Part shown: positions 19,701 through 53,366 of the stretch, piece by piece
How the letters are laid out: each line of letters opens with the position of its first letter
Numbering within the stretch: the stretch's first letter is position 1
Source: an uncultured bacterium
GTDB taxonomy: Bacteria > Patescibacteriota > Patescibacteriia > CAIQCM01
Direction of reading: 5' to 3'
DNA: 64,000 nucleotides
Assembly (NCBI GenBank): GCA_963708045.1
Contig: OY970181.1
Location: 195,740-259,739, forward strand
Made by a program: the position numbers and the translations under genes
The notes under the pieces: model-generated
Databases searched by the model: none
Told to the model about the DNA's origin: nothing
The model's input: only the letters and a program-made list of their open reading frames with translations

Positions 19701-22700
19701 TATTCGCGCCCGAGGTCGTGATTGTCGCTCCGTTATCATAAGCTTCTTGAAGCGTTGTCGCGCCCGCGGTATCGCAATCTTTCCAAGCAATATTTTCAAA
19801 ACAACGGAATTTATTCGCGTTAGCGTTATAGTACATCGCGCCAACTGATCCCGTGGGGTCGCCGGCGCTAGATTTTATGTCGGTAACCAAAAGGTCAGGT
19901 GTGGTCACGCCGGCACCAGAACCGATTTGAACATTTGCAGTCTGCCCCGCGCCCGCAACTTGCAGTGAAAGATTTCCCGCGCTCGTGCCCCAGGTAGCGG
20001 CGGCGGCAGAAGTAAGCGTTAAGGCACCGGATGATGATTGCCAAGTTGCCGCGCCGGCCGAAGTAATATTCATTGAGCCCGCAGCAGTCAAAATTGTTGA
20101 TGTACCAAGTGAAACCGTGCCCGAACCAGCTTGGAGCGTTAAATTTCCGGCTGAAGTTGACCAGGTTGAAGCCACGCCAGCGGTAACGGTAATGGCCGCG
20201 CCCGAGACAACACCAATCGCGCCAGCCGCCCCACTCCCAATTGTCACCGTTCCCGTGGACGTTCCATTATTAATATTTGTATTAAAATTTGACGAAGAGT
20301 TTAAATTAACCGCCGCGCCCGTAACATTCAAACCAAGCGAGCCAGTAAGCAGTTGACTCGCGGTTAAGGCGCCGTTTATTGTTGTGGTTATTCCGCTTCG
20401 CGAAATGGAAATTGCCGAGGCATTCGTCGTGCCAACGTTCACCGTTCCCGCCGTACCCGTCGCCGTTCCCGCGTCAATCGTGACGTTACCAGAATTTGAT
20501 GTTGCCCCACCAGCATTTCCCGTAACAAGCGACACGGCGGCGGAATTGGTAGAGCCGGCGGTTTGATTTAAAGTTTTTAATGTAAGGGTGCCGGTGCTTC
20601 CCGAAGAAATCGTTGTCGTTTGGGCAAAAGTTAGGTTGCCCAGATTATCAATCCGCGCGCGTTCAACCGGCGAACCGACATTAAGCGTTTCAAAACGGAT
20701 CGCGCCGGTTTCGGCGCCTGGCGTCACGTTGGTAAGAATTCCAGAAAGCCGCGCGGCCGGGACTTCGGTGCCAATATTATTTTGCGCGCGCAAAAGCATT
20801 CCCACGCCAAGACCGGCAGCCGGCGTGCCCGAGGTTGCATGTTCCAAAACAAGAACGTCGGAAATGTCGTTATTGATCGCGTCTTCTTGTTCCACATAAA
20901 GCTTAGTACCAGTATGCGGCGTACTAGTTCCAAGGCTAAGCTGTTTACTCGCGTTGTCCCAGTAAAATTCATTATCGCCCGTTTGCGTATTTGATCCGTT
21001 CCAAAAAGAAACTTGTCCGGACGTACCTGTACCCGACACACTCGCGCCGCCAGCGCAGTCAATCCAAGCATTATCAATGTAGCAGCGAAAAGTTTTAGTA
21101 ACCGTATTATAATAGGTGGCGCCGTTGGTTGACGGCGGGGTGGCGGGGTCGGAGGCTTTGTTTGAAAAAATTAAAAGCGACGAGTTGGCAATTTTAATAT
21201 TTCTTGTCGCCGAAAGATTAAGGTCGGTTGTTGCGTCAGAGTTTGTAATTGTGTTTGTTCCAGCAGCAAACGTAAGCGTGCCTGATGAAGAAGAAAGTGA
21301 AAGCGCCGCGCCGCCGCCAGACGAAACCGCGAGTGCCCCAGTACTTGCAAGCGAACTACCCGAGAGTGTTGTCGCGCCAGTAACTAGACTTGTGCCAAAA
21401 TAACCCGTGCGCCAGCGATTTCCACTCGCGCCAACATCCAAAGCATTATCGGTTGTACCAGGTTGAAGCGTGCCCACTTCGGTGATGCGCAATTGTTCGG
21501 TCAGAACGCCGCCGCCCACGCGCGTAAAGAAACCAAGCATTGAATCTTCGGTGCCATTTGCGGTGTTGGTTAAGACTGCAGAAATACCACCGCTATCGGC
21601 GAGCGCGCCAGCATCATTTTCATTTCTAAATAAAAGATTTGAACCAATACCGTTTCCGGCCACGGCGGTCGTGGTGTGATCAAGCACAAGAACGGTTGAT
21701 GAATTATTATTAACCGCGTCATCCAACGAAATATCGGCCTTGGTTCCGGCGGGCGGTGCAGTGGCGCCAATTTGCAACTGATCGGCGAAATTTTTCATTT
21801 GATTAATGAGCCCGACTTCGGTCCACGTTCCCAAACAATCTTGCCAAACACCGGCTTTATAGCAACGGAATTTATCATCAGCAGAATTGTAATACATCGC
21901 GCCGTTAACACCACTTGGATCGCCGGAAGTTGATTTGGCGTCCATAACCAATAGATCAGGCGTTGCCGATGGCGCACCCGTTCCAATCTGGATATTTCCC
22001 GTTCCGGAACCGGCAGCAATGAACGAAAGGTTACCTGCCAAAGTTCCCCAAGTGGCGGCCGAAGCCGAAGTTAACGTAAGCGCGCCGGCGGAAGTTGACC
22101 AGGTAGAAGTTGCACCGGCGGTGAATGTCAGCGCACCGGCGGAAGTGAATTGCGACGCGGCGGTTGGCGTAAGGTTAACAGCGCCCGTGCCGGTCGCGTT
22201 AAAGTCGCCCGAAGTTAAGGTGAAAAGAATCGGCGTTGATGACGAGGTTGTTACCGAAGCGCCAGCGTTATAAGCCGTCTGAAGCGTTGTCGTGCCGCCC
22301 GTCGTATCACAGTCTTTCCACCCTCCACCTTCGTAACAGCGAAATTTTGCGGCTATGGAATTGTAATACATGGCGCCGTTCGCGCCCCCCGCAGGATCGC
22401 CAGCGTTTGATTTCAAATCAACAACCAATAAATCAGGCGTTGTTGATCCTCCGGCGCCGATTTGAACATCGGCCGTCACTCCAGTTCCAGCCGCCTGCAA
22501 AGAAAGATTTCCAGCCGACGTTCCCCAAGTTGAAGCCGCGCCGGCGGTAAAAGTGAGCGCACCGGCCGAAGTAAATTGCGAGGCGGCTGTCGGCGTAAGG
22601 TTAACCGCGCCGGTGCCAGTGGCGTTAAAGTCGCCCGAAGTTAAGGTGAAAAGAATCGGCGTTGATGAACCGGTAATAATCGCGTTTCCATTATTATATG

Positions 22701-25700
22701 CCGTTTGTAAATTAACCGTGCCGCCTGTTGTGTCACAGTCGGACCACGAACCGTTTAAATAACAACGAAATTTATTTGTAGCTGAGCTGTAGTAAATAGC
22801 GCCATCCACGCCAGACGGATCAGCAAGCTGACTTCCCAAAACCAACAAATTTGAATCATCTATTTTTGTGTTAGCCGTTGCTTTCAAAATTATATCCGTC
22901 GTTGCGTTGGTGTTAGATATCGTATTAGTACCAGCGGCGAGTTTCAAAATTCCCGAACCCGAATCAAGCGAAAGGTCGCCACTCGTCGTTCCCCAAGTTG
23001 AGGCCGCGCCGGCGGTAAAGGTGAGTGCACCAGCCGAAGTAAATTGCGAGGCGGCGGTTGGCGTGAGATTAACAGCGCCGGTGCCGGTCGCATTAAAGTC
23101 GCCCGAGGTTAAAGTGAAAAGAATCGGCGTCGATGACGAGGTCGTAATTGAACTGCCGTTATCGTACGCACTTTGCAAAGTAGTCGCGCCTGAAGTATCG
23201 CAATCTTTCCAACTGATATTTTCATAGCAACGGAATTTATTAAGGTTAACATTATAGTACATTGCGCCAACCGATCCCGTTGGATCGCCGGCATTTGATT
23301 TTAAATCAACAACCAAAAGATCGGGCGTGACTGATCCAGCGCCAGAACCGATTTGAATATTCGCAGTTGTCCCGCTTCCGGCTGGCTGAAAAACTAGATT
23401 ACCCGTTGCCGTGGCAAGCGAACCATCAGCCAGGGTCGTGTTTGCGTTCACAATCGCGCTTGTGCCAAGATATGCTGTACGCCAAACATTTCCCGTTGCG
23501 CCGATGTCTTCGGCGTTGCTGGTCAAAGCTGGCAACAAGCCAGCGGCTGTTATACGCAGGCGTTCGGTCGCGGCCCCGCCGCCGGTTCTAGTTTCAAAAC
23601 TTATTGCCGAGGCTTCAGCGCCCGAGGCCGCGTTGGTAAGAAGGGCATTAATGTGCCCGACGTTGGTTATGGAACCGGCGTCATTTTCGCTCCTAAAATT
23701 TATTCCCAATCCAATCCCCGCCGCCGCCGTTCCGCTAGTCGTATGATCAATCGTCACGACATTTGAAATATCGTTAGCCGTCGCGTCGTCGGAAACGATC
23801 TGTAGTTTGGTGTCTGCAACTGGCGACGCCGTACCAATACCAACCTGATCAGAAATAGTGGTAAGCCGCGTAACGCCGCTCGCGCTTATAAAAGCGCCAA
23901 CTGCGCAGCCGCCCCAGACTCCGTTTAAATAACAGCGCATTTGATTTGTCGCGGTGTTGTAGTACATCGCGCCGTTTGTCGCGGGCGGCGAAGCTGGGTC
24001 AGCTGCTTTTGATGACATCACAACAAGCGACGAATCGGCGATCTTCACGTTGCGCTGACTGCCGATAATAAGGTCGGTGCCAACGTCGGTGTTTGACAAA
24101 GAATTTGATCCGGCACCCAAAGAAACCGTACCCGAGCTGGAAGCAAGGCTTAGCCCACCAGTCGCATTGACCGTAAACGAACCAGTTGAAGTTACAGAGC
24201 TGCCGGCATAAGTTGCTGAACCGATTACGACGCTCGTTCCAAAATAACCCGTGCGCCAGCGATTTACCGCCGAACCAATATCCTGACCATTGTCGCTCGC
24301 GCCAGGAATAAGAAAACCCTGATCATCTATACGCAAGCGCTCGGTGAGCGGACCGCCAGCCGTGCGTGTTTGAAAAGTAAAAGCGCTATCTTGCGCGCCC
24401 GAAGTCACATCGGTAAGAATTGAAGTTATGCGACCGCTTAAACTTGGAGTACCAACACTGTTTTCCGCGAGAAAAACCAAACCGTTGCCAATTCCGTTTG
24501 CCGCCGCTCCTGTCGTTGAATGAACAAAAGCGCCAACGTCGGTATAAGTATTATTTGCCGTGTCGTTGACGGAAACAGAAAGCGGTGCCGTTGTCGTGTT
24601 TGTTCCAATGCCTAAATGTTTGGTCGTGTTATCCCAAAACAATCCGCTATCGCCGGTTTGCGAATTTGTCCCATTCCAAAAAGCAACCTGACCAGCAGAA
24701 CCAATACCGGTTACCGTGCCGCCCGTAATGCAATCCATCCACCCGCCACCAGCAAAACAGCGAAACTTATCCGTTGCTGTATCGTAATACATTGCGCCAT
24801 TAACGCCAGTTGGATCGGTTGCTTGTGAGCCCAAAATTAAAGTGTCAGCATCGGCAATTTTTATATCGCCCTCGGCATCAAGCACAAGATTAGTGCCGAG
24901 GTCGGTATTAATAATCGTATTTGTTCCCGCGCCCAAATGTAAAAATCCAGAACCAGCGGTCAAAGAAAGGTCGTTTGCGCCGCCCGAGGCAATTTCTAGC
25001 GCGCCTGTTGCATTAAGGTTGGTAGTGGTTCCCAAAGAAATAATTCCCGACCCGGCCTGCAGAGTTAAGTTGCCAGCGGTCGTGCTCCAAGTAGAAGCAC
25101 CCGCGCCAGTAATTGTTAGCGCGCCTGTACCCGAAGACAAGTTTACCGCGCCTGTGCCAGTGTATGATTGGCCAGGCGCCACGCTTACGCTTCCAGTACC
25201 GGAGAAAGAAATTAAATCAGCGCCGCCGAAAGTTTCAAACCGAACAAGCGGCGCGGTCTGTGTTGAAAATCCTGTTACGGTAAATTGCGTTTCGTCGGCT
25301 GTAGGTACGCCAGCCGTACTTAAATCAGAAAGATAGGCGACGGTACCGGATTCATTTTTAAAAGTAATTGTTCGCGACGAAGTTGGATCGGTAATTGCAA
25401 AAGTTGTTTTGTTGGCGTTTGCCGTTGCTCCGTCAAAAACAAGCGGCGAAGCGCCGAGAATATTTCCTGAAGAAAAGACAATTCCCCCGTTTGCCGTTAA
25501 CGTCGCCGCCGTTGTTAAATCACTTTGAACCGTAGTTGTGATGCCGGTTTTTCCAAGGGTAATCGCCATTGCATTTAAAGTACCGAGGTTAAGGGTTGTT
25601 GCCGAATCCAACGTAAGTGCGCCGGCCGAAGTTGACCACACCGAAGCCGCGCCAGCCGTAAGCGTAAGGGCGCCGGACGAAGTAAATTGCGACGCGCTGG

Positions 25701-26664
25701 TCGGCGTTAAATTTATCGCTCCCGCGCCAGTCGCATTAAAATTTCCGTTTGCCAAATTAAATAAAATCGCATCTCCCCCACTCGTATTAATTGTTTGGCC
25801 ATTATTATAAACCGATTGCAGGGTTGAAGTACCGCCAGTTGTGTCACAGTCAGCCCACGAACCATTTACAAAACAACGAAATTTATTTGTTAGCGTATTG
25901 TAATATGTCTGACCATTAACACCCGACGGATCAGCGACAGCCGAGCCCAAAATTAAACCGCCGCCGATTGTCGTGAGCATTCCCGCGCTACCCAAATTTA
26001 CATTTTGCGTTAGCGTTAAATTTCCCGAGGCGTCGGTAACCGGCACAAACGCCGAGGCGCCGCCGACAGCCGACGTGCCAAATGAATTTAATTTCAAACT
26101 ATTTAACGATTGATATACCGCCGACATCCGCGTGCGCGGTGTCATTTCGGCATCGGTATTAATTTTTAAACCCAAGTAACGACTGTCGTCGGAAAATATC
26201 GCGTCTGGCAAATTATTTTGTCCGCCCGAAGTTGAGTCGCCTAAAAGTACAGAAAATAATCCATTAGTAACACCGACCGATACCGTCCCAAGCAACCCGC
26301 AATCAGTCGTATTTGCGTTTGCATCAGTATCAGCCGCTGACCAAACACAGGTGCCGCCCGAAGCAGAATCGTAAATAGCGATCTGCATATTGTAAGTTCC
26401 ATTTGCAACATTGCTTCCAGCTGTATCAGTCAACCGTCCTTGGTAATTTAAAAGTCTAACAACACCACTTGCACCAAAGGCCGGCTTAGCAATTCCAAAA
26501 AATAGTGAAGAAAAAATTAAAAACGACAAAACAAAACCAGACCAAGCCGCGCGGCGCGCACTTGGCAAAAAATGTTTCAATGTATTTTTAAAATTCATTG
26601 AATTTGTCTGTTTTTTTATAAACAACAGAACAAATAATTTCTCTGGTCGGTTTATAACAACCAA
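16795..26664 (-). CDS. giant secreted/surface repeat protein (3289 aa)
   Basis: Single uninterrupted ORF. N-terminal signal/TM. Very Gly/Thr/Ser/Ala/Asn-rich with many internal repeats (recurrent ...DPSGVNGAMYYN...KFRCY.NG.W.DCDT.GGT... modules). Globular C-terminal domain followed by a Pro/Thr/Glu-rich tail. Confidence 0.8.
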   Translation of the reverse strand: MVVINRPEKLFVLLFIKKQTNSMNFKNTLKHFLPSARRAAWSGFVLSFLIFSSLFFGIAKPAFGASGVVRLLNYQGRLTDTAGSNVANGTYNMQIAIYDSASGGTCVWSAADTDANANTTDCGLLGTVSVGVTNGLFSVLLGDSTSGGQNNLPDAIFSDDSRYLGLKINTDAEMTPRTRMSAVYQSLNSLKLNSFGTSAVGGASAFVPVTDASGNLTLTQNVNLGSAGMLTTIGGGLILGSAVADPSGVNGQTYYNTLTNKFRCFVNGSWADCDTTGGTSTLQSVYNNGQTINTSGGDAILFNLANGNFNATGAGAINLTPTSASQFTSSGALTLTAGAASVWSTSAGALTLDSATTLNLGTLNAMAITLGKTGITTTVQSDLTTAATLTANGGIVFSSGNILGASPLVFDGATANANKTTFAITDPTSSRTITFKNESGTVAYLSDLSTAGVPTADETQFTVTGFSTQTAPLVRFETFGGADLISFSGTGSVSVAPGQSYTGTGAVNLSSGTGALTITGAGASTWSTTAGNLTLQAGSGIISLGTTTNLNATGALEIASGGANDLSLTAGSGFLHLGAGTNTIINTDLGTNLVLDAEGDIKIADADTLILGSQATDPTGVNGAMYYDTATDKFRCFAGGGWMDCITGGTVTGIGSAGQVAFWNGTNSQTGDSGLFWDNTTKHLGIGTNTTTAPLSVSVNDTANNTYTDVGAFVHSTTGAAANGIGNGLVFLAENSVGTPSLSGRITSILTDVTSGAQDSAFTFQTRTAGGPLTERLRIDDQGFLIPGASDNGQDIGSAVNRWRTGYFGTSVVIGSATYAGSSVTSTGSFTVNATGGLSLASSSGTVSLGAGSNSLSNTDVGTDLIIGSQRNVKIADSSLVVMSSKAADPASPPATNGAMYYNTATNQMRCYLNGVWGGCAVGAFISASGVTRLTTISDQVGIGTASPVADTKLQIVSDDATANDISNVVTIDHTTSGTAAAGIGLGINFRSENDAGSITNVGHINALLTNAASGAEASAISFETRTGGGAATERLRITAAGLLPALTSNAEDIGATGNVWRTAYLGTSAIVNANTTLADGSLATATGNLVFQPAGSGTTANIQIGSGAGSVTPDLLVVDLKSNAGDPTGSVGAMYYNVNLNKFRCYENISWKDCDTSGATTLQSAYDNGSSITTSSSTPILFTLTSGDFNATGTGAVNLTPTAASQFTSAGALTFTAGAASTWGTTSGDLSLDSGSGILKLAAGTNTISNTNATTDIILKATANTKIDDSNLLVLGSQLADPSGVDGAIYYSSATNKFRCYLNGSWSDCDTTGGTVNLQTAYNNGNAIITGSSTPILFTLTSGDFNATGTGAVNLTPTAASQFTSAGALTFTAGAASTWGTSAGNLSLQAAGTGVTADVQIGAGGSTTPDLLVVDLKSNAGDPAGGANGAMYYNSIAAKFRCYEGGGWKDCDTTGGTTTLQTAYNAGASVTTSSSTPILFTLTSGDFNATGTGAVNLTPTAASQFTSAGALTFTAGATSTWSTSAGALTLTSASAATWGTLAGNLSFIAAGSGTGNIQIGTGAPSATPDLLVMDAKSTSGDPSGVNGAMYYNSADDKFRCYKAGVWQDCLGTWTEVGLINQMKNFADQLQIGATAPPAGTKADISLDDAVNNNSSTVLVLDHTTTAVAGNGIGSNLLFRNENDAGALADSGGISAVLTNTANGTEDSMLGFFTRVGGGVLTEQLRITEVGTLQPGTTDNALDVGASGNRWRTGYFGTSLVTGATTLSGSSLASTGALAVSSGGGAALSLSSSSGTLTFAAGTNTITNSDATTDLNLSATRNIKIANSSLLIFSNKASDPATPPSTNGATYYNTVTKTFRCYIDNAWIDCAGGASVSGTGTSGQVSFWNGSNTQTGDNEFYWDNASKQLSLGTSTPHTGTKLYVEQEDAINNDISDVLVLEHATSGTPAAGLGVGMLLRAQNNIGTEVPAARLSGILTNVTPGAETGAIRFETLNVGSPVERARIDNLGNLTFAQTTTISSGSTGTLTLKTLNQTAGSTNSAAVSLVTGNAGGATSNSGNVTIDAGTATGTAGTVNVGTTNASAISISRSGITTTINGALTASQLLTGSLGLNVTGAAVNLNSSSNFNTNINNGTSTGTVTIGSGAAGAIGVVSGAAITVTAGVASTWSTSAGNLTLQAGSGTVSLGTSTILTAAGSMNITSAGAATWQSSSGALTLTSAAAATWGTSAGNLSLQVAGAGQTANVQIGSGAGVTTPDLLVTDIKSSAGDPTGSVGAMYYNANANKFRCFENIAWKDCDTAGATTLQEAYDNGATITTSGANIAYTLTSGNFNATGAGAVNLTPTSASQFTSGGALTLTAGAASTWSTSSGALTLTAGAASTWSTLVGALTVDSASALNLGTSGATSVSLGKTGITTTNNGALTVTQTLTANGNITLSSGNVTGASPLSFDGATADAVKTIFAITDPTVTSKTITFPNATITVNAAADISGTTLASGVVTSSLTTVGILTSGSIASGFGTIATANTISTSNNISTTGSGTITSAGLLTGNLGLTVSGAAVSLNDNSNFNTSINAGTSTGTVIIGNSSLASIGFTSGTGAQTFTSSNATGVTTASSFVFNDTSLTSGTLLRLNSTSTSGKIVDINFTNTTGTIMNGAYGAATNQGAGALIGLAFDMNANLTAPSAGQNITGFDLKLPTASTTSNATIYNGYNLTTAGAITNGTAGSFLWHGVNVTLPGITQSAGGAVTASGVMVNTGTITTNGTANGVEIAAAGIGAGSLNGLGISNITGGAGTETAINIGAGWDQGLTIGVTPSATTGRTIDVAGNWGGNSLNNVHLTTANDTVTVSTKALVYFLSLCNVTTTCSTGNGTQGAAPTTTFNITGLPNTDGTFAFIETQVQRIGVGGGANENATIIVQVNGTQVSTVTAGAANTNSVVIIENYTIVRANGAWRVVGTPGTADSADLAEWIPYSGDEPVAGELVSLDTNNPVTVVRSSGTDNKKLIGVVSTLPHTTLGKDDGHSVRLALAGRVPVKVSDENGAIGAGDYLTLSSVPGVAMKATSPGFVIGQVLSSANGDDASEAIMLIKNTYYPGDEPALSLVMGRLIDSKDLPNGITSFALDIQAETPHDPIAALIDRINAGAKIAADFVAARVTAIRGYFDETHQRKLCVGDAKTGNETCITKDQLDQLLNSQQNVNAPSAPPAPVPVVNEPVTNTPTPPVEPVTTTPSTEEPVVNEPATDPDTINEPAAESAPPTDEPMPEPTVSEPSAEISPAPQAEPTPTETIPVSQE

Positions 26665-29912: not shown

Positions 29913-30038
29913 GGCGTCATCCCGAAGAGCGGTAGCGATGAGGGAACTCAACGTCTCTAAATCGTCTGCGAGATTCCTCGCCGAGCTGAGCTCGGCCGAG
30001 CCCTAGCCAGATCAACCTCACGGGCTCGGAATGACGGC
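29913..30038. repeat. MITE-like palindromic element, copy B (long form, followed by a T-run)
   Basis: ggcgtcatcccgaagagcggtagcgatgagggaactcaacgtctctaaa...ccgagctgagctcggccgagccctag...ctcggaatgacggc tttttt. Confidence 0.7.
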
Positions 30039-30151
30039 TTTTTTAATAACCTCTTGTGGTAAAAAATGATAGAATGACTAACGTACAAACCCGTCAGGAT
30101 TAGACATTAGTCATTCGTTGTTTTTCCCATAAGCCATTTGCCACAAACTAC

Positions 30152-31800: not shown

Positions 31801-31933
31801 ACAAAGTTCTTGAGTAAAAGAAATTGACACAACTAAGCCGATATTGTAATCTTCACTTCTAACTGATATCTATTGATTCGCTCTCAATTCATTAGATACT
31901 AGTCATTAAACATTAGATATTAATTATAAAAAC

Positions 31934-32200
31934 ATGGCTATCAAACACGCCGCCGCAAAGGCGATCCGCAAGTCGGCAAAAAATCACGCCTTTAACATTA
32001 AGACGCGATCGGAATTTAAAAAACTAGTTAAGGAAGCACGCAAGCTCATTACTGCCGGTTCTGCCGACGCCAAAAAAGCCGTCGCCGCCGCCGTCAAATC
32101 TTTGGACAAATCGTCCCGAAAAGGCGTAATTGCAAAAAACACCGCCGCCCGATTAAAATCACGGCTCATGAAGGCGTTGAATAAAATTGCAAAGAAATAA
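31934..32200 (+). CDS. rpsT: 30S ribosomal protein S20
   Basis: 88 aa. MAIKHAAAKAIRKSAKNHAFNIKTRSEFKK... basic helical protein. Divergent from holA, as in many bacteria. Confidence 0.75.
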   Translation: MAIKHAAAKAIRKSAKNHAFNIKTRSEFKKLVKEARKLITAGSADAKKAVAAAVKSLDKSSRKGVIAKNTAARLKSRLMKALNKIAKK

Positions 32201-34378: not shown

Positions 34379-34479
34379 ATATTTAATGAACGATTTTGAC
34401 CAATAAATATATCATTTTTTGCCAATTTTGTCAATCATCAAAAACCCGCGCCAAGCGCGGGTTTTTCTTTTATTTTAAA

Positions 34480-34585
34480 GCCGTCATTCCGAGCCCATGA
34501 GGTCGGTCTGGCCAAGGCGAGGGATCTCGCAGGCGACTTAGAGACGTTGAGTTCCCTCATCGCTCCCGCTCTTCGGGATGACGCC
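34480..34585. repeat. MITE-like palindromic element, copy C (inverted orientation, short form)
   Basis: gccgtcattccgagcccatgaggtcggtctggccaaggcgagggatctcgcaggcgacttagagacgttgagttccctcatcgctcccgctcttcgggatgacgcc. Confidence 0.7.
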
Positions 34586-34598
34586 CGAGGATTAGACA

Positions 34599-37433
34599 TT
34601 AGATATTCGGTTCATCATGTTTCTCCTCCGCATTCTCCAACTCTCCCCAACTCCGGCCAACGCGAATATCAACTTTAACCGGCACGCGTAATTTAATCGC
34701 GCTTTCCATTTTTTCACGAATAAGCGGAAGAATAATTGCCGCCATCCCGTGCTTTACTTCAAAAACTAATTCGTCGTGAACTTGTAAAATCATTTTCGCG
34801 CCAGCATCAGGTTGAAGCCCCCAGCGCTCGGCGATAATTTTATTAAGTTCAATCATCGCGAGCTTAATTGCGTCAGCGTTGGTTCCTTGAATTGGCGCGT
34901 TTACCGCCATCCGTTCGCCCGCGGCACGAAGGTAGGGGATGTTTGATTTTAATTCCGGCAAATAACGGCGGCGGCCAAAAATTGTTTCAATGTACCCTTG
35001 CGCGTAAGCGAGCGTTTTGGTGTTGTCCAAATATTCGCGCACTTTGGGAAAGGTTAAAAAATATTTTTCAATAAAGGCGCGCGCCTCGGTGCGGGGAATG
35101 CCGGCCGATTCCGCAAGCGCGTTTTCGCCCATACCATAGGCAATGCCAAAGTTGATCGCCTTAGCCGCCGAGCGTTGCTCCTTAGTAACTTTAGGGAGTG
35201 GCACGCCCCAGACTTCGGACGCCGTGCGCCGATGAATATCTTCGCCATTTTGAAAAGCGGCAGTCAGCGCCGGATCTTCCGAAAGGTGCGCGAGGATGCG
35301 CAATTCTATTTGCGAATAGTCGGCAACAATTAACTCGCTCCCGGCGGGCGCAACAAAAGCCTTTCGTATTTCGCGACCAAGCTCGGTTCTAATAGGAATA
35401 TTCTGCAAATTCGGGTCAGACGACGACAAGCGACCGGTGGCCGTAACCGTTTGGTTAAAAGTCGTGTGCACGCGATGCGTGTCTTGCCGCACCAACTTTG
35501 GCAAAGCGTCTACATAGGTAGAAACCAATTTCGCGAGTTCGCGATGTTCCAAAATAAGCGGCACAATTGGGTGGGCGTCTTTTAGTTTTTCCAATTCATC
35601 GGCCGAGGTTGAATAGCGCGAGCCGCCAGCGGTTTTGCGCACCCGGGCGTTTTGCTGAATTTGTAATTTTTCAAACAAAACTTCGGCCAGCTGTTTGGGC
35701 GAATTTACGTTGACTTCGTCGCCGGCGTATTTTTTTATCTCAAGTTCAAGCTCGCCAATCCGCGCCGTGAGTTTAACACTTAGTGTTTCCAAAAATTTTG
35801 AATCCAGATCTACCCCGTGTCGCTCCATTCCAGCAAGGACTGGCGCGAGCGGCAATTCAAACTTTTCTAAAATATGGATCAAATTTTCTTTTTGCAAACG
35901 TTCAGCTAGCTTTGGCGCCACGTCCCAAATCGCTTGCGCTTCGGCCGCATCGTGGGCATAACTGTCCGACGGCATTGGGAGGAGCGAAGCCTGCACCTTA
36001 GGGAGTTCGCGGCTAAGTTCGGAAAACGCGAGCGCTTCTATTTCGTGCGCTCGCGTTCCCGGATTTAAAACATACGACGCAAGCATCGTGTCAAAAACAA
36101 TGCCGCGCACGTCCATTCCGAGCGTGCCAAAAATTTCTATGTCCGTTTTGGCGTTATGGCAAATCTTTTTTGTTTCGTCCGAAGCCAGCCAGCTTGCTAA
36201 TTTTTTTAGATTTTCTTTTGTCGCCGGCACAATGTAAACCAAATCGGTCCAAGCAAAAACAATCGTTTCCAGTTTTCCATCCAAAAAGTAGCCATTATAA
36301 AAAGTCCGCATCGCCACTTTTTCCTGTTCCTTTAATTCTTTAACCAGCTCCACCATTTCGTTGTCTGTGGTGACTATAGAATAACCGCCGCCTTTTTTCC
36401 CTCCCTTAAGGTAAGGGAGGGGAGGGTGGGTTATGAGCGCCGCTTTTTTCTTTAAAGCAGTTTTCAATGCGCCATTGTCACTTTGAGCTTCCTCACTTCC
36501 ATTCAAAATAACGCCAGCCGCCTTTGGGAACGTTTCAACCACCCGCGGCATCAAGCTTTTAAAATCCAAATCCGCGAGCGCGGCAATAAGATCCAAATGA
36601 TCCGGTTCAACCAAACGCGCCGCGTCTAAATCAAAGTCAACGTCCACGTCGGAAACAAGTTTTACCAAACTCTTTGCTTCAAGCGCGTCATTTTTAAATT
36701 CTATTAAATTCGCTTTTTGTTTTTTGGGAATCGTTTTTGCTTTTTCGGAATCGTTTTCAATTTCTTTATACAAATTTTCCAAGGTGCCATAAGCCCCAAG
36801 CAAGGTAGCCGCGCCAACTTCGCCAATGCCGCGCACGCCAGGGATATTGTCACTTGGGTCGCCGCGCAAAGCTTTATAGTCAATCATTTGCTCGGGCTTT
36901 AAACCAAAGCGCGCGATCACTGCCGCCGGGTCGTACATGAGCGTGTCTTTAATCCCTTTTCCCGGCGTGAGCACCGAGGTTGTTTCGTCAATCAGTTGAA
37001 ACGTGTCTTTGTCGCCCGTAAGAATAACGCGCGATAAATTTTTTTTATTTTTTGTTTTAACGCACAGCGTGGCAATAATGTCGTCAGCCTCAAAACCAGC
37101 TTTTGATAAAGTCGGAATTTTTAAAACTTTTAGAATATCTTGCACGATCGGAATTTGCGTATAGAGATCGTCTGGTTTTTTTTCGCGCTGCGCTTTGTAT
37201 TTGGCAAACGCTTTGTGGCGAAAAGTTTGTTCTTTGCGGTCAAAAGCCACGGCAATATATTCTGGGTGTGTGTCTTTAATCGCTTTTAATAATATGGAAA
37301 TAAATCCGTAGACAGCATTAACCACGCGGCCGTCTTTGGTCTGGAGCGGCGGCACGGCATGAAAAGCGCGATGAATAAGCGCGAGCGCGTCAACGATTAA
37401 AAAAACTTCGGTTTTTTGTTGTTTGTCAGTCAT
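34599..37433 (-). CDS. polA: DNA polymerase I
   Basis: 944 aa. 5'-3' exonuclease N-terminus (MTDKQQKTEVFLIVDALALIHRAFHA), Klenow-like polymerase core (...RRAAKAINFGIAYGM..., ...QVHDELVFE...). Confidence 0.9.
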   Translation of the reverse strand: MTDKQQKTEVFLIVDALALIHRAFHAVPPLQTKDGRVVNAVYGFISILLKAIKDTHPEYIAVAFDRKEQTFRHKAFAKYKAQREKKPDDLYTQIPIVQDILKVLKIPTLSKAGFEADDIIATLCVKTKNKKNLSRVILTGDKDTFQLIDETTSVLTPGKGIKDTLMYDPAAVIARFGLKPEQMIDYKALRGDPSDNIPGVRGIGEVGAATLLGAYGTLENLYKEIENDSEKAKTIPKKQKANLIEFKNDALEAKSLVKLVSDVDVDFDLDAARLVEPDHLDLIAALADLDFKSLMPRVVETFPKAAGVILNGSEEAQSDNGALKTALKKKAALITHPPLPYLKGGKKGGGYSIVTTDNEMVELVKELKEQEKVAMRTFYNGYFLDGKLETIVFAWTDLVYIVPATKENLKKLASWLASDETKKICHNAKTDIEIFGTLGMDVRGIVFDTMLASYVLNPGTRAHEIEALAFSELSRELPKVQASLLPMPSDSYAHDAAEAQAIWDVAPKLAERLQKENLIHILEKFELPLAPVLAGMERHGVDLDSKFLETLSVKLTARIGELELEIKKYAGDEVNVNSPKQLAEVLFEKLQIQQNARVRKTAGGSRYSTSADELEKLKDAHPIVPLILEHRELAKLVSTYVDALPKLVRQDTHRVHTTFNQTVTATGRLSSSDPNLQNIPIRTELGREIRKAFVAPAGSELIVADYSQIELRILAHLSEDPALTAAFQNGEDIHRRTASEVWGVPLPKVTKEQRSAAKAINFGIAYGMGENALAESAGIPRTEARAFIEKYFLTFPKVREYLDNTKTLAYAQGYIETIFGRRRYLPELKSNIPYLRAAGERMAVNAPIQGTNADAIKLAMIELNKIIAERWGLQPDAGAKMILQVHDELVFEVKHGMAAIILPLIREKMESAIKLRVPVKVDIRVGRSWGELENAEEKHDEPNI
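36399..36434. repeat. 36-bp palindromic repeat inserted in frame inside polA
   Basis: ccctcccttaaggtaagggaggggagggtgggttat encodes ...THPPLPYLKGGKKGGGYS... in the PolA interdomain region. Near-identical to 5007-5042. Confidence 0.75.
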
Positions 37434-39416: not shown

Positions 39417-40064
39417 GTGGGAATTAAATATAGTATCAACGAGACGTTTTTTACCAAATGGTCATCTAATATGGCTTATGTCTTGGGTTTCTTTTGTGCC
39501 GACGGCACAATGATTGATGACAAGATAAGCCGTGGCAAATACGTTCGTTTTATTAATACAGATAAAAATATTCTGATAAAAATTAAGGAGGCACTTAACT
39601 CCGAGCACAACATATATACAACCAAGGCTACAGCAAACCGTAAGGCTAAATACGTATTGAGTATTGGAAACAAAACTATTTATTCAAGTCTGATAGTTCT
39701 TGATTTAACGCCAAATAAATCATTGGACATTGCACCGCCGTCGGTTCCCAAACAATATATCAACGATTTTGTTCGTGGATACTGCGATGGCGATGGTTGT
39801 ATATATATTGAGAAACAGAGCAATACACTTAGGCTGATATTTACTTCTGGAAGCTCAGGTTTTCTTGTCGGTCTTGCGAAAATGATTACATTAATGAGCG
39901 GTGTTAGTATTAAAAATATATTAAACAGCCACCGAAGCTACCAATTGCGATACACACAAAACGACGCCATTACTATACTTCGTAGTATTTACAAAAATAC
40001 AAAATCTGGTCTATACTTGGAACGGAAAAGAAAAATATTCCAAAAATTTATTAAAAACAGATAA
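39417..40064 (+). CDS. double-motif LAGLIDADG homing endonuclease
   Basis: Two motifs, LGFFCADGT and RGYCDGDGC, about 100 aa apart. 215 aa. Ends 4 nt before tRNA-Cys. Confidence 0.7.
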   Translation: MGIKYSINETFFTKWSSNMAYVLGFFCADGTMIDDKISRGKYVRFINTDKNILIKIKEALNSEHNIYTTKATANRKAKYVLSIGNKTIYSSLIVLDLTPNKSLDIAPPSVPKQYINDFVRGYCDGDGCIYIEKQSNTLRLIFTSGSSGFLVGLAKMITLMSGVSIKNILNSHRSYQLRYTQNDAITILRSIYKNTKSGLYLERKRKIFQKFIKNR

Positions 40065-40068: not shown

Positions 40069-40142
40069 GGCCGCGTGGTGGAGTGGTTACACAAGGGTCT
40101 GCAAAACCCTGTACATCGGTTCAATTCCGATCGCGGCCTCCA
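40069..40142 (+). tRNA. tRNA-Cys(GCA)
   Basis: Acceptor ggccgcg/cgcggcc. U73 discriminator (a Cys identity element). Encoded CCA. Anticodon stem agggt/accct with loop ctGCAaa. T-arm atcgg-ttcaatt-ccgat. Short D-stem. Confidence 0.65.
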
Positions 40143-44371: not shown

Positions 44372-44438
44372 CGGTCGCCTCCCTTGTTCTTCGTTTCCTC
44401 TAAAGCTAATTGCGTCTTATCTAAATTACGATAAAAAG

Positions 44439-45317
44439 TCAACTATTTGTACTAGACGGGTACATCGGTAACAAGTGCTCGTGCTTGTAGATGAAATTGA
44501 TCGGTGACATATACCCCAGGGTTTGGTGCGGCCGACGGAAGTTGTATTCGATCAGCCACTCAGTGAGCCGTCGGTTGAATTCGGCGCAGTCGTCGGTCAT
44601 GTTCCCGAGCTGAACAAACTCCTCTTGTAGGGTTCGGTTGAACCGTTCGTTCGTCGCGTTGTCCTTGGGTGTTTTGATCCGCGAATGATATTGGGGAATA
44701 TTTAGAGCAAGACACGCGTCAGCAAACCGTCCCTTGAACTCGCTGCCGTTGTCATGCCCAACGTTCTCTATCTTCCCATCAACGAGATGATGGAGGCGAT
44801 AAAGAAAATCGCGAGAATTTGATGAACTCTTTGACGTATACATCCGGGCAAAAGCTAGTTTAGAGTGTTTGTCGATGGCGGTGAAGATGAAACGCTTCTT
44901 GCTTTTCCAATAAATAACGACGGTATCGAGGCAGAGTAGAAACCCCGATCGTTTCTTGGTCTTGAGGTCGGTGATCTTCTTGCGTTTAACACTATTCTTT
45001 CGTTTTTTGTTGATCCTGGCTTGTTTTATTGGGTGGTAATAGAGACGGTACTTCTCAATAGTCTTCTGCACCTTCCACTCAGAAATGATCTCGTGATATT
45101 CTGTGTTATAGAGAGTGGCGATCTTCGCTTTTCCATAGCGGATATGCGTCCTCTTCAACGAAATGATTCGTTCAGCTTGGAGCGGGGTAATGGCCCGCTC
45201 TTTGCGTTTCTTGGGGGTACGATCAAGTTCTTCAAGGGTGCGGAGGTTGGCATCGTTAAAGCGTTTCTTCCATTTCCAAAAGGTCTTGGGGGCGATGCCA
45301 AAATGACGAGCCGTCAA
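44439..45317 (-). CDS. DDE (rve-family) transposase
   Basis: HTH FGIAPKTFWKWKKRF. DDE region DTV...HDNGSEF...NERFNRTL. 292 aa. The stop codon lies in the flank outside the IS end. Confidence 0.8.
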   Translation of the reverse strand: MTARHFGIAPKTFWKWKKRFNDANLRTLEELDRTPKKRKERAITPLQAERIISLKRTHIRYGKAKIATLYNTEYHEIISEWKVQKTIEKYRLYYHPIKQARINKKRKNSVKRKKITDLKTKKRSGFLLCLDTVVIYWKSKKRFIFTAIDKHSKLAFARMYTSKSSSNSRDFLYRLHHLVDGKIENVGHDNGSEFKGRFADACLALNIPQYHSRIKTPKDNATNERFNRTLQEEFVQLGNMTDDCAEFNRRLTEWLIEYNFRRPHQTLGYMSPINFIYKHEHLLPMYPSSTNS

Positions 45318-45577
45318 AAGAGCGTTGCCGCCGTGCTCCTCGTGCCAAAGGAACCAATCTAGTCAACGTCTAGCGGGAACGGAGATGCCGATCAGGTCGG
45401 CGACGGCGCGAAGGCGCGCCCGACGCGATTTAGTTAAAACGATACCGGGTTTGAAATACCCGCCGGTGTGGAACCAACGAAGCGTATGATTGCTCATAGA
45501 AAGATGAGTTAGATGGGTAACAGTCTCATTTTAACCCCATTCGAGGAGTGTTACCGATGTATCTCATCTTCTCCACT
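44448..45577 (-). mobile_element. insertion sequence copy 1 (~1.13 kb, rve/DDE transposase, IS481/IS3-like), 3-bp TSD ATT
   Basis: Near-identical to 51001-52131. Flanked by att|IS|att. Target ...gtcaact|att. Subterminal inverted repeats around tacatcggtaaca. Confidence 0.8.
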
Positions 45578-49221: not shown

Positions 49222-49346
49222 GGCGTCATCCCGAAGAGCCGAAGCGATGAGGGAACTCAAAGTCTTTAGCAAGTTTCGTGATTCCTCGCCGAGCTGAGCT
49301 CGGCCGAGCCCTAGACAAAACGTCCTTACGGGCTCGGAATGACGCC
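49222..49346. repeat. MITE-like palindromic element, copy D (long form)
   Basis: ggcgtcatcccgaagagccgaagcgatgagggaactcaaagtctttagc...ccgagctgagctcggccgagccctag...ctcggaatgacgcc. Confidence 0.7.
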
Positions 49347-49436
49347 ATAAAAATTATTATTACGCACTTTATCATAAAAAAACGACGCAGCCTGGGAATT
49401 CCAGACTGCGCGTGGTGGGCGAGATGTACGGCGGGG

Positions 49437-50922: not shown

Positions 50923-50991
50923 TTGTTCACCTCGCGTTTTCGTAAAAAGAGCTATAACCTGCTAACTGTTTAATTGTTTTCCGCACTTATG

Positions 50992-51870
50992 TCAACTCTG
51001 TGTACTAGACGGGTACATCGGTAACAAGTGCTCGTGCTTGTAGATGAAATTGATCGGTGACATATACCCCAGGGTTTGGTGCGGCCGACGGAAGTTGTAT
51101 TCGATCAGCCACTCAGTGAGCCGTCGGTTGAATTCGGCGCAGTCGTCGGTCATGTTCCCGAGCTGAACAAACTCCTCTTGTAGGGTTCGGTTGAACCGTT
51201 CGTTCGTCGCGTTGTCCTTGGGTGTTTTGATCCGCGAATGATATTGGGGAATATTTAGAGCAAGACACGCGTCAGCAAACCGTCCCTTGAACTCGCTGCC
51301 GTTGTCATGCCCAACGTTCTCTATCTTCCCATCAACGAGATGATGGAGGCGATAAAGAAAATCGCGAGAATTTGATGAACTCTTTGACGTATACATCCGG
51401 GCAAAAGCTAGTTTAGAGTGTTTGTCGATGGCGGTGAAGATGAAACGCTTCTTGCTTTTCCAATAAATAACGACGGTATCGAGGCAGAGTAGAAACCCCG
51501 ATCGTTTCTTGGTCTTGAGGTCGGTGATCTTCTTGCGTTTAACACTATTCTTTCGTTTTTTGTTGATCCTGGCTTGTTTTATTGGGTGGTAATAGAGACG
51601 GTACTTCTCAATAGTCTTCTGCACCTTCCACTCAGAAATGATCTCGTGATATTCTGTGTTATAGAGAGTGGCGATCTTCGCTTTTCCATAGCGGATATGC
51701 GTCCTCTTCAACGAAATGATTCGTTCAGCTTGGAGCGGGGTAATGGCCCGCTCTTTGCGTTTCTTGGGGGTACGATCAAGTTCTTCAAGGGTGCGGAGGT
51801 TGGCATCGTTAAAGCGTTTCTTCCATTTCCAAAAGGTCTTGGGGGCGATGCCAAAATGACGAGCCGTCAA
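50992..51870 (-). CDS. DDE (rve-family) transposase
   Basis: Identical to the copy-1 protein except the last residues (TQS vs TNS), which are flank-encoded. An upstream overlapping 80-aa HTH-like ORF (51809-52051) is intact only in this copy. Confidence 0.8.
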   Translation of the reverse strand: MTARHFGIAPKTFWKWKKRFNDANLRTLEELDRTPKKRKERAITPLQAERIISLKRTHIRYGKAKIATLYNTEYHEIISEWKVQKTIEKYRLYYHPIKQARINKKRKNSVKRKKITDLKTKKRSGFLLCLDTVVIYWKSKKRFIFTAIDKHSKLAFARMYTSKSSSNSRDFLYRLHHLVDGKIENVGHDNGSEFKGRFADACLALNIPQYHSRIKTPKDNATNERFNRTLQEEFVQLGNMTDDCAEFNRRLTEWLIEYNFRRPHQTLGYMSPINFIYKHEHLLPMYPSSTQS

Positions 51871-52131
51871 AAGAGCGTTGCCGCCGTGCTCCTCGTGCCA
51901 AAGGAACCAATCTAGTCGAACGTCTAGCGGGAACGGAGATGCCGATCAGGTCGGCGACGGCGCGAAGGCGCGCCCGACGCGATTTAGTTAAAACGATACC
52001 GGGTTTGAAATACCCGCCGGTGTGGAACCAACGAAGCGTATGATTGCTCATAGAAAGATGAGTTAGATGGGTAACAGTCTCATTTTAACCCCATTCGAGG
52101 AGTGTTACCGATGTATCTCATCTTCTCCACT
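51001..52131 (-). mobile_element. insertion sequence copy 2, 3-bp TSD CTG
   Basis: Flanked by ctg|IS|ctg. Target ...gtcaact|ctg. 1-nt indel relative to copy 1 in the region upstream of the transposase start. Confidence 0.8.
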
Positions 52132-52372
52132 CTGGCACACCCCTCCCATCTTGGCGCGGCCGCGCCAAGATGGGAGGGCAAAAAAATAATCAATTACTAA
52201 TTTAATATTAACGATCCAAAATCGGTCTATAGATTTAAAACACAGCATCACATTAAATCGCGATCGCGAATTAATGTGATGCGTGAAAAAATATTACAAA
52301 ATATAAATCAACATAGAAAATAGGGAAGCGACTGTTGGCCACTTCCCTATCATGCGCGATTGTCATTCGGAT

Positions 52373-53146
52373 CTATGGAGTCTTCGCCGATTCAGCAAGT
52401 GGTAGTTTACCAACGACGTCGCTCACGACAGTGCTAAGCACTTTCGCACCAACGCGTTGTACAATCGTGGCTAGTTCGCCAGTGACCCTTTCAAGCTCAG
52501 CACCCATGAGAGACGTGTGCGCTCTTAGTGCTATAGCAACTTGGTCGCGACATTCTTGCATTGTACCGAACGCGTGCGCCCGTTGAACGACAGCGCCTGG
52601 CCGCCAATCGGTCGGAACAACCATTCCGGCGCGTAGTCTTGGAAACAACTTGCGTCCGTAGTCCACCTGAAACCACATCCAATCGGTCGGCCGCAATTTC
52701 GCAAAACCCATAATAAGCTCTCCGACCGAACTCGTACTGATTACTCCGTACAATTTTTTTCCGGTTTGAGTAAGTTGCACTACGTTAAAAAGCGGCGTGT
52801 CAAGAAACACCCGCCATTCCGCGTCTTTCCAATACGGCGGTTGCCAACCAAGGGCAATCGGGTCGTTGCCAAAAGAAAGACCAAGCTGATTAAGTAGTCC
52901 ACCAAGCTCTTCACGATCTTCGGATATATCACGTGCGGATGCAAAGTTTAACCGACATGCTTCCCCAAGATACAGAACGCCGTACCGACGGCAGTAGTTA
53001 GCTAGCGTCGGAGTACAATTTAAACAATCAATCATTGTGGAGAGCGCCGCAAGCGCCTCTTTTTCAAGAGCGGCGGGGTTCAAACCATCATTATAAAGTG
53101 CGCGTTGTATGCTTACCATTTTTCTCCTCGTGTTTCGTGTTTCCAA
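52373..53146 (-). CDS. hypothetical protein (GC-rich orphan)
   Basis: 257-aa ORF. Followed by paired palindromes (atcacattaa...ttaatgtgat, then ccctcccatct...agatgggaggg). Confidence 0.4.
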   Translation of the reverse strand: METRNTRRKMVSIQRALYNDGLNPAALEKEALAALSTMIDCLNCTPTLANYCRRYGVLYLGEACRLNFASARDISEDREELGGLLNQLGLSFGNDPIALGWQPPYWKDAEWRVFLDTPLFNVVQLTQTGKKLYGVISTSSVGELIMGFAKLRPTDWMWFQVDYGRKLFPRLRAGMVVPTDWRPGAVVQRAHAFGTMQECRDQVAIALRAHTSLMGAELERVTGELATIVQRVGAKVLSTVVSDVVGKLPLAESAKTP

Positions 53147-53366
53147 AATGAAACTAGAACCTGTTTAAGGTTTAGTCGTTAACTGTGTCCTTGTCAACTT
53201 ACCCCACCCTCCCATCTTTCCACGATCGTGGAAAGATGGGAGGGTAAGAGATAACACCGCATCACATTTAACCGCGATCGCGAATTAATGTGATGCGAAA
53301 AAAATTTTAAAAAAACAGCCCGCCCCGATGACCATCGGAGCGGGCTTGTGACGACATTCGGATCGT

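Follow-up and report, generated by a model that had tools for sequence, protein, structure and literature searches.

Introduction

The BoxC repeats of E. coli were re-described by Hoyne and Maher (2000, 2002) as 'potential intrastrand triplex' (PIT) elements and by Holder et al. in 2015 as TMECO, a motif of the form 5'-CCCTCNCCC N3-6 GGGNGAGGG N3 GGGNGAGGG whose triplex fold was verified in vitro by circular dichroism, nuclear magnetic resonance and melting (PMC4666352). There are 23 copies in strain K-12 and 3610 in 262 proteobacterial genomes; they were described as 'always intergenic', their inverted pairs always combine a type A with a type B unit, no transposase, integrase or other activity providing genetic mobility was found near them, and no function is known for them except an association with genomic rearrangement (PMC4666352). 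Here we analyze a repeat with the same architecture in 64,000 nucleotides of contig OY970181.1, from an uncultured groundwater patescibacterium (this whole stretch is hereafter the window), where a 36-bp unit lies in frame inside polA, the gene for DNA polymerase I. We read this unit, with a probability of roughly 0.75, as a solo copy of a dispersed, non-autonomous triplex-type repeat, the full form of which is a cassette around a gene of the DUF559 family, and which survives in polA in an open frame and a tolerant linker.

Rickettsia palindromic elements (RPEs), reportedly described by Ogata et al. in 2000, include RPE-1, which measures 100-150 bp and is specific to Rickettsia. Another repeat system, REPIN-RAYT or the REPtron, is said to go back to Bertels and Rainey and to Ton-Hoang et al. 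REPs inside the genes for Pol I, UvrA/B/D, RecBCD and DnaE2 were reported in 2013 by Di Nocera et al., as were RPE-4 and RPE-6 of Rickettsia (PMC3733652). The intragenic-repeat phenomenon is already known; the present data extend it to triplex-type repeats and to bacteria of the candidate phyla radiation (CPR).

Repeat units in the window

An earlier note on this DNA had claimed a 36-bp repeat in frame in polA and a near-identical intergenic copy at 5007-5042, and both are borne out. The polA gene (34599-37433, minus strand), recognized as an open reading frame (ORF) and by Pfam and structure matches, is intact and encodes an uninterrupted protein of 944 aa; it carries the 36-mer CCCTCCCTTAAGGTAAGGGAGGGGAGGGTGGGTTAT as an exact match at 36399-36434 (+), from which the intergenic copy at 5007-5042 (+) differs by two mismatches. 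One hundred dinucleotide-preserving shuffles yielded no match to the 36-mer at three or fewer mismatches. The other hairpin that the note had seen beside the 5007 copy proved to be a third copy, inverted and diverged, at 4960-4994 (-), with the stem CCTCCCCTTA/TAAGGGGAGG, in which changes are compensatory, and the tail GGAGGGGTTA. As left and right halves, the copies at 4960-4994 and 5007-5042 constitute a head-to-head doublet with a 12-nt spacer (4995-5006). This doublet (4960-5042) joins a CCTCCCC variant with a CCCTCCC variant, a pairing that was seen again in metagenome loci, and its 84 nt are predicted to fold as a three-way structure (-25.6 kcal/mol).

Read on the G-rich strand, the solo unit in polA consists of a pyrimidine arm CCCTCCCTTA (36399-36408), the loop AGG (36409-36411), a purine arm TAAGGGAGGG (36412-36421), the 2-nt turn GA (36422-36423) and a mirror tail GGGTGGGTTA(T) (36424-36434), all on the + strand. 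Window units thus read CCCTCCCTTA N3 TAAGGGAGGG N2 GGGTGGGTTA, and the 13-nt tail of the unit is a mirror repeat of the purine arm. The element had been described as a hairpin, and a hairpin it is (CCCTCCCTTA/TAAGGGAGGG in the polA copy: -9.7 kcal/mol as DNA and -16.4 as RNA, z about -4), but the mirror tail places the unit in the class of triplex repeats. A triplex-motif finder scored all three window units as class II motifs with nine triads, loops of 5 and 2 nt and no mismatches; the same finder returned no motif from 20 shuffles. Class II, by the ITxF definition, comprises stems of 6-15 nt with at most one mismatch and loops of 1-6 nt (PMC4666352). The window variant GGGAGGGGAGGGTGGG also contains four G3 runs.

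When the entire window was searched with Rfam at gathering thresholds, four tRNAs were recovered and nothing matched at the element, and a full-text literature search with the stem strings returned no relevant paper. The polA copy is flanked by the similar sequences GAAAAAAGCGGCG and GAAAAAAGGCGGCG. A target-site duplication was considered and rejected, as it was not seen at the orthologous copies or at the 5007 copy; we regard the resemblance as a coincidence within a Lys/Gly/Ala-rich linker.

The wider repeat family

One genome per species was scanned with the degenerate pattern CCYYCYCTTANNNTAAGRGRRGGNAGGNNGRGTTA, which imposed no relation between arm and tail. At least 119 stretches matched, and the following counts refer to the 142 units among the matches listed. 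The tail mirrored the purine arm (G opposite G; A or T opposite A) at 7/7 positions in 134 of the 142 units and at 6/7 in the rest, and this rule held across 11 distinct arm/tail types (permutation p <1e-4). For instance, the purine arm GAGGGGG is accompanied by the tail GGGGGAG, GGGGAGG by GGAGGGG, GAGGAGG by GGAGGAG, GAGAGGG by GGGTGAG and GGGAGGG by GGGTGGG. When arms were sought without a purine constraint, 407 of 420 were nevertheless pure purine, and the mirror rule was also kept by unrelated sequence families around other DUF559 genes. The covariation across variants follows the third-strand triad rules G*G.C and A*A.T / T*A.T. Judged by sequence, the rules that relate arm and tail are those of a purine-motif intramolecular triple helix. 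The window units have the pyrimidine stem, purine stem and mirror purine third strand of the class II definition, and they are a new sequence family of the known intrastrand-triplex class, the triplex itself being predicted.

By the earlier note, a lack of other copies would have counted against its reading; many other copies exist, including further in-frame insertions in coding sequence. Among Patescibacteria, the labels of the matching records include Uhr-, Jorgensen-, Doudna-, Komeili-, Ames- and Saccharibacteria and Microgenomates; others read Nitrospirota/Thermodesulfovibrionia, Desulfuromonadales/Geobacter, Thermodesulfobacteriota, Gammaproteobacteria and Dehalococcoidia. By record label, matches fall in at least five phylum-level groups, and contigs of 1.5-3 Mb are among them. 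The exact window variant occurs in 41 metagenome stretches. Phage carriage was considered as a route between phyla and set aside, as only four viral contigs matched the element.

A general finder identified 357 units in the loci from the genome scan and 125 in the metagenome loci. Head-to-head pairs predominate (111 and 27, respectively) over tail-to-tail pairs (21 and 7), and many units are solo. Most are intergenic, in either orientation and with no consistent class of neighbour. Tail-to-tail doublets that enclose no gene also exist, with short spacers down to zero (in L040, GTTA directly abuts TAAC). In some relatives (L149, L004, L153 and L156) we observed a longer composite repeat in which the unit stands between atatcgaagcatctgcc and tatggngagtcctctgcngcgg (L149 244-266, 1684-1706 and 2210-2232; L004 15691-15725); in these loci, larger repeats thus include the 36-nt unit as one of their modules.

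The resemblance to BoxC/PIT/TMECO is structural. As in those repeats, a C-rich and a G-rich arm are followed by a G-rich third strand in mirror order, copies are many and dispersed, loops are less conserved than the stems and no transposase lies nearby, and the window doublet pairs two different types, as TMECO doublets do. Unlike TMECO, the window family has a 10-bp stem that ends in TTA/TAA, a first loop of 3 nt and a second of 2 nt, and does not conform to the TMECO sequence; its labels are Patescibacteria, Nitrospirota, Desulfobacterota and others, whereas TMECO belongs to Proteobacteria; and it is found repeatedly in frame inside genes, whereas TMECO is 'always intergenic'.

Insertions in coding sequence

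Units within long ORFs accounted for 24 of the 142, with 12 in each of the two open readings. As read from the sequence, each orientation of the polA unit has only one frame free of TAA and TAG (2/6 open), and it is because of this single stop-free frame per orientation that surviving coding copies are 'in frame'. The C-strand reading resembles ITPPxPSYxKRG and the G-strand reading PPLKVRGGRGSY. By Pfam, units are found in MurC (between the middle and C-terminal ligase domains), LeuRS (just ahead of the anticodon-binding domain), a STAND-WD40 protein (between domains) and three GT4 glycosyltransferases (at the border of the two Rossmann halves in at least two of them, one with a doublet), as well as in frame in MurB, UvrA, a ClpB-like AAA protein and a Wzy_C-TPR protein. 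Coding insertions usually fall between domains.

Like intragenic REPs and RPEs, the units are short palindromes that lie in frame in genes that stay intact, with DNA polymerase I and UvrA among the hosts; as with intragenic REPs, head-to-head dimers predominate and tolerance is explained by flexible linkers (PMC3733652). Unlike REPs, the window family has no conserved GTAG or CGTC tag and does not qualify for membership among them, and unlike REPs and RPEs alike it has a mirror tail, strict purine and pyrimidine arms and labels across several phyla. The earlier note had likened the element to RPEs. The behaviour is indeed RPE-like, with several in-frame copies in otherwise intact conserved genes, but the family is set apart from the Rickettsia RPE families by description (a Patescibacterial host, a 36-nt unit) and is placed by its structure in the BoxC/PIT/TMECO class instead.

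The PolA linker and its orthologues

On the minus strand, which is the sense strand of polA, the unit encodes the 12 residues ITHPPLPYLKGG (aa 334-345). PolA contains the full Pol I set of Pfam domains (5_3_exonuc_N, 5_3_exonuc, DNA_pol_A_exo1 and DNA_pol_A). Relatives of PolA bear names that point to a member of the Patescibacteria (CPR) as the host. The insert is not an assembly artefact, because a 1.19-Mb contig at NCBI and a 9.9-kb Logan contig, assembled independently, encode the identical protein. The earlier note had located the peptide between the 5'-3' exonuclease domain and the remainder of the enzyme and had proposed to map it onto a Pol I structure, and the results agree with that location: in Pfam, the 5'-3' exonuclease SAM-fold domain ends at aa 278 and the 3'-5' exonuclease domain starts at aa 351. 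Among solved structures, the best match is full-length Pol I of M. smegmatis (6vde, E 1e-169); the alignment covers PolA aa 8-304 and 375-930 and leaves aa 305-374, with the insert, unaligned. In an AlphaFold2 model made with 34 orthologues, the predicted local distance difference test (pLDDT) score averages 83.8, but falls below 50 in aa 305-348, where there is no secondary structure. From the Pfam boundaries, the unaligned 6vde segment and the low pLDDT, the insert sits in a linker, predicted to be disordered, between the 5'-nuclease and the exonuclease domain (aa 305-348; 36390-36521, minus strand), which corresponds to the protease-sensitive junction that joins the 5'-nuclease to the Klenow fragment. 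The peptide is probably neutral for PolA.

In the alignment of the 34 PolA orthologues, this linker is hypervariable in both length and sequence. The insert peptide was found in approximately ten close relatives, as ITHPTLPYIKGG, VTHPTLSYPKRG, LTHPTLSYNKRG, ITPPTPSYLKRG and similar forms; it is missing from sister sequences (e.g., P0006 versus P0004; P0010/P0012 versus P0007) and absent from an entire intermediate clade, as well as from all PolAs at 46-48% identity. An insert with the identical 36-mer is present in the distant PolA P0021. The arms are CCCTCCCTTA/TAAGGGAGGG with the tail GGGTGGG in the window, L001 and L002, CCCTCTCTTA/TAAGAGAGGG with GGGTGAG in L004 and L008, and CCCCCTCTTA/TAAGAGGGGG with GGGGGAG in L007. 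The 36-mers of L001 and L002 are identical in proteins that are only ~70% identical, and in L004 and L008 the polA copy shares its stem variant with other copies on its own contig. A clade of related species carries the insert at the same place in PolA, each with its own stem variant, and this pattern reads as that of a repeat gained, lost and homogenized within genomes, not as that of a conserved linker peptide. One ancestral insertion followed by strict vertical descent was rejected: it conflicts with the patchy tree and with the identical 36-mer in P0021. The earlier note had anticipated a lineage-specific insert, and this was upheld with a refinement: the insert is absent at 46-48% identity and patchy among nearer relatives, and it is not private to this genome. 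Nor did the same peptide turn up in the PolAs at 46-48% identity, as the note had supposed for an ancestral linker shared with distant taxa.

A separate repeat family of ~120 nt (GGCGTCATCCCGAAGAGC...GATGAGGGAACTCAAAG...GGGCTCGGAATGACG) was observed in the window at 3345-3465, 29913-30041, 34473-34593 (inverted) and 49222-49354, with one copy directly after the polA stop codon. In L004 and L007, the PolA linker contains an in-frame insertion of the 5' hairpin part of this repeat, translated as VIPSVSEGTQS, with alignment scores of 43 and 30, respectively; shuffled sequences scored at most 26. The window PolA linker GVILNGSEEAQS may hold a decayed remnant of it, with a score that is not significant.

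DUF559 genes flanked by repeats

Clustering of 2320 ORFs from approximately 160 element loci revealed a recurrent protein of 115-135 aa in 18 loci, which belongs to DUF559 (PF04480, E 1e-26 to 1e-35). Its closest solved relative is 3hrl from N. gonorrhoeae (E 3e-23), and DUF559 has a Vsr-like PD-(D/E)XK nuclease fold with conserved E-x-D...H residues. In most of these loci, repeat units bound the gene with their tails inward, in a layout of [hairpin-tail] - ~10 nt - ATG...DUF559... - [TAA CCC... tail'-hairpin]. This cassette is ~470 bp long and its gene encodes ~125 aa. In the window's lineage and several others, the DUF559 stop TAA is formed by the first 3 nt of the downstream unit, and the G-rich tail occupies the place expected for the ribosome-binding site of the gene. 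The cassette ends are often head-to-head doublets, on both sides.

Cassettes with the two variants of the window were found in nine metagenome loci (L140, L142, L146, L149, L160, L162, L164, L172 and L173), and at L144/L154 the cassette contains a DUF559 pseudogene. The cassette also occurs in Uhrbacteria and in two loci labelled proteobacterial, and one unit of the Amesbacteria cassette has the opposite orientation. The DUF559 genes of L008, L081 and L100, which were not selected via the element, are flanked by different triplex motifs that obey the mirror rule. Several tail-to-tail doublets resemble a cassette minus its interior, as a MITE-like deletion derivative might. Weak tblastn matches of DUF559 at 4612-4680 of the window (E 0.2-4) were discarded as chance, as they lie in the wrong frame of a membrane-protein ORF.

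Like REPIN-RAYT systems or REPtrons, this arrangement has a single small gene of nuclease type flanked by inverted dispersed repeats, often doublets, with most repeat copies far from the gene and, in E. coli, a single copy of the gene; unlike them, the flanked gene is DUF559, Vsr-like and closest to 3hrl among solved structures, and not an HUH/Y1 transposase. With Vsr, a nicking repair enzyme that reads distorted DNA, and I-Bth0305I, a homing endonuclease that spreads by break repair, DUF559 shares a nuclease clade; unlike them, it is free-standing here, at 115-135 aa, with no intron or intein context.

Repeat-independent sample and E. coli population

We sampled 14 DUF559 genes regardless of repeats: ycjD of E. 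coli K-12, ten matches from a plasmid collection and three contigs from a protein look-up. Triplex motifs adjoin 13 of the 14, usually on both sides and with tails inward. The positive genes are those of E. coli (ycjD), Azospirillum, Neisseria, Photobacterium, Sphingomonas, Deinococcus, Sinorhizobium, Synechocystis, two further cyanobacteria and three contigs of metagenome-assembled genomes (MAGs); the Methylobacterium gene was not counted as positive. In 450 kb of shuffled sequence there were no triplex motifs, and even at a generous chance of 3% per gene, at least 10 of 14 would have p ~5e-13.

Motifs lie 22 nt upstream and 51 nt downstream of the Sinorhizobium gene, 11 nt upstream and 4 nt downstream in L188, and 32 nt upstream in L186, where another overlaps the 3' end; an upstream motif was recorded at 18 nt in Deinococcus, 43 nt in Azospirillum and 46 nt in Synechocystis. 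The Sphingomonas gene stands between two doublets, the Photobacterium gene has a motif 46 nt downstream followed by an array, and in the two further cyanobacteria short motifs of G5-G6 were recognized by eye. A degenerate C-rich stem overlaps the ycjD stop of E. coli K-12, and a type A TMECO lies 168 nt downstream. The gap between ycjD and fabI (L174, ~7300-7420) also holds a duplicated fragment of the ycjD 3' end (ETVLENI..GLNR) between the stop and TMECO, suggesting a past rearrangement or a second, decayed copy of DUF559. Arrays of triplex motifs in alternating orientation were observed downstream of DUF559 in L176 (N. gonorrhoeae; 2005-2699, period ~281 nt) and L177 (Photobacterium; 1891-3333, period ~150 nt).

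Of 5426 complete E. coli genomes, 3378 carry ycjD, as a single copy. Carriers belong to phylogroups A, B1 and C and to two sequence types of D and E; the other genomes have eefRABCD at this site (PMC12817139). Sixty genomes taken at even ranking steps were searched with a composite query of ycjD and its TMECO. The 37 ycjD-positive genomes had 10-26 further TMECO-like places (median 18), compared with 1-16 (median 5, many with 1-5) in the 23 ycjD-negative genomes (Mann-Whitney p 7e-10). These data agree with the published counts of 29 TMECO motifs in strain 55989 versus 1 in IHE3034 (PMC4666352). Elsewhere among Enterobacteria, Enterobacter has up to 143 TMECO and Salmonella none.

Other features of the window

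Several further features were observed. Approximately 14 copies of a 94-bp unit with the palindrome TGGCATTACGGTCCGATGTCCATCGGACAGGTTCG form a tandem array at 9446-10780, near the start of which lies a tRNA gene (9485-9555). A 215-aa ORF at 39417-40064, with a faint LAGLIDADG_3 match, ends 5 nt before the tRNA gene at 40069-40139 and is a possible homing-endonuclease remnant. Palindromes of 38 nt with perfect stems (CCCTCCCATCTT...AAGATGGGAGGG) at 52141-52178 and 53207-53244, and a second inverted-repeat pair at 52245-52283 / 53258-53296, bracket a 257-aa ORF (52373-53146, minus strand); the sequence of these palindromes is unrelated to the polA repeat. The segments 44438-44737 / 50991-51290 and 45365-45577 / 51919-52131 are 99-100% identical and ~6.55 kb apart, suggesting that a block of at least 1.1 kb was recently duplicated. 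A large, internally repetitive coding region at 19200-26000 (minus strand), with several repeat families of 60-300 nt, probably encodes one or more large repeat-rich surface proteins. Finally, a 7-nt periodic motif (ATTAGAC/ATTAGAT...) is clustered at 1966-2051, 1599-1635, 3237-3261, 30094-30122 and 31891-31948, and follows triplex units in several metagenome loci (e.g., L137, L160 and L163: ggattagacattagatattagg).

Discussion

That the polA repeat is mobile, or at least copy-spreading, is the best-supported reading of these data. In the unit, a 10-bp hairpin whose arms are all pyrimidine and all purine, respectively, is followed by a 2-nt turn and a G-rich mirror tail, and as single-stranded DNA the unit could fold into an intrastrand purine-motif triplex with the triads G*G.C, A*A.T and T*A.T; such a triplex may form in vivo. 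The complete element would be the ~470-bp cassette of two inverted units, tails inward, around the DUF559 gene, and solo units and doublets would derive from cassettes or serve the same enzyme as substrates. Within genes, copies would persist only in the two of six frames free of TAA and TAG, and at tolerant sites such as disordered inter-domain linkers; the polA copy would merely lengthen the linker between 5'-nuclease and exonuclease by 12 residues.

Because of the cassette architecture, the DUF559 nuclease is the leading candidate for an enzyme that acts on the units, either as their mobilizer or homogenizer or as a parasite that homes into them. Whether it cuts or nicks the units and so drives their copying or homogenization we would put at about even odds. 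More tentatively, and with a probability slightly below even, BoxC/PIT/TMECO and the new family might all be cognate repeats of DUF559 nucleases, which YcjD represents in E. coli. The system would resemble a REPtron with a Vsr-like nuclease in place of the tyrosine transposase: the nuclease would recognize the hairpin/triplex unit and nick or cut it, repair from other copies would spread and homogenize the units, and the solo copies in genes would be by-products. The earlier note had called the element selfish; this we still infer, on better grounds now that a nuclease gene is found flanked by the units. Each check put forward in that note favoured its interpretation, which stands with the refinements given here. 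A literature search yielded no paper that connects BoxC, PIT or triplex repeats to DUF559 or ycjD, the searchable literature being incomplete, and the text of Holder et al. mentions neither ycjD nor an endonuclease, the DUF559 link being absent from it (PMC4666352).

Several observations weigh against our reading. The 64-kb window contains no DUF559 gene, and we know of no biochemical activity of DUF559. No consistent target-site duplication or insertion footprint is seen at the polA copy, the orthologous copies or the 5007 copy, and every polA copy has one orientation and frame, such that a single old insertion followed by gene conversion would give the same pattern in polA. Several MAG records may be wrongly labelled as to taxon. 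In the E. coli comparison, phylogroup is a confounder (A, B1 and C with ycjD; most B2, D, E and F with eefRABCD instead), and the correlation is supportive, not decisive. As for the triplex, in vivo dimethyl sulphate footprinting in E. coli showed none, and purine-motif triplexes do not form in RNA (PMC4666352).

The most serious competitor retains the cassette but reverses its logic: the DUF559 gene would be a homing-type parasite that inserts into pre-existing tail-to-tail doublets, while the repeats are spread by host recombination, replication slippage or another enzyme. Gene-free tail-to-tail doublets with spacers down to zero would provide such targets, the literature places DUF559 in one group with Vsr and the EDxHD homing endonuclease I-Bth0305I (PMC3424549; PMC9403480), and insertion sequences that target REPs are reported (PMC1525189). 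However, several tail-to-tail spacers look like cassette ends after an internal deletion, E. coli genomes with ycjD have more motifs, and the start and stop of DUF559 are tightly fused to lineage-specific units in very distant lineages, which points to co-evolution as one element; we consider the homing parasite unlikely, though well ahead of the explanations that follow. A variant of the structural interpretation, in which the G-rich strand forms a G-quadruplex rather than a triplex, draws on the four G3 runs of GGGAGGGGAGGGTGGG, but variants that have no four G-runs keep the mirror rule all the same (GAGAGGG..GGGTGAG, in L004 and L008), and Holder et al. set out to exclude a quadruplex for TMECO and concluded in favor of the triplex (PMC4666352). 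This, too, seems improbable.

The other explanations, like the quadruplex, fit the data poorly. If the unit were kept in polA for a local function in cis (a translational pause, mRNA stability, or a pause in replication or transcription), one would point to its stable mRNA hairpin (-16.4 kcal/mol) exactly at a domain boundary, where several other coding copies also lie, and to the block of DNA polymerase by PIT elements in vitro (PMC4666352). Domain-boundary sites are equally predicted by purifying selection on random insertions, however, close relatives do without the insert, and the lack of a consistent neighbour class among the mostly intergenic units, in either orientation, is matched in E. 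coli (PMC4666352); we give a cis function little credence. Least probable of all, in our view, are two further possibilities. That ITHPPLPYLKGG is ancestral to the PolA linker and maintained by protein-level selection is consistent with its recurrence in at least ten related PolAs, always at one place and in one orientation and frame, but not with its absence from sisters, the intermediate clade and all PolAs at 46-48% identity, the predicted disorder of the region, the occurrence of the same DNA between genes and, in both readings, in unrelated genes, or the nature of the differences among orthologues, which are paired changes of hairpin and mirror tail and not conservative amino-acid changes. 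An ordinary REP or REPIN moved by a RAYT (IS200-like tyrosine transposase) would account for a GC-rich hairpin of 35-36 nt, the head-to-head excess (111 versus 21 tail-to-tail), intragenic copies in repair genes (PMC3733652) and a GTAG in the consensus of this lineage. That GTAG lies 3' of the hairpin, though, and its T is a free N position, which is G in the polA copy and, in the commonest type, A in 55 units, T in 19, C in 16 and G in 11; moreover, REPs do not require strict purine and pyrimidine arms or a mirror tail, and the 2320 ORFs of the ~160 element loci include no Y1 transposase cluster, the flanked gene being DUF559.

For polA itself, the finding means an essential enzyme with a 12-residue passenger in a tolerant linker, and with it Patescibacteria join the organisms that have short repeats in replication and repair proteins. 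Triplex-type repeats emerge as a much broader set of families that extends into candidate-phyla bacteria and can be written into proteins in either reading, and they consistently wrap DUF559 genes, from groundwater MAGs to ycjD of E. coli. Through this association, the origin and spread of BoxC/PIT/TMECO and the function of DUF559 become matters for simple experiments in E. coli. If the cognate-repeat reading is true, it would give DUF559 a function and would explain the origin, the mobility and the 'genomic instability' of repeats that have had no known mobilizer since the 1990s.

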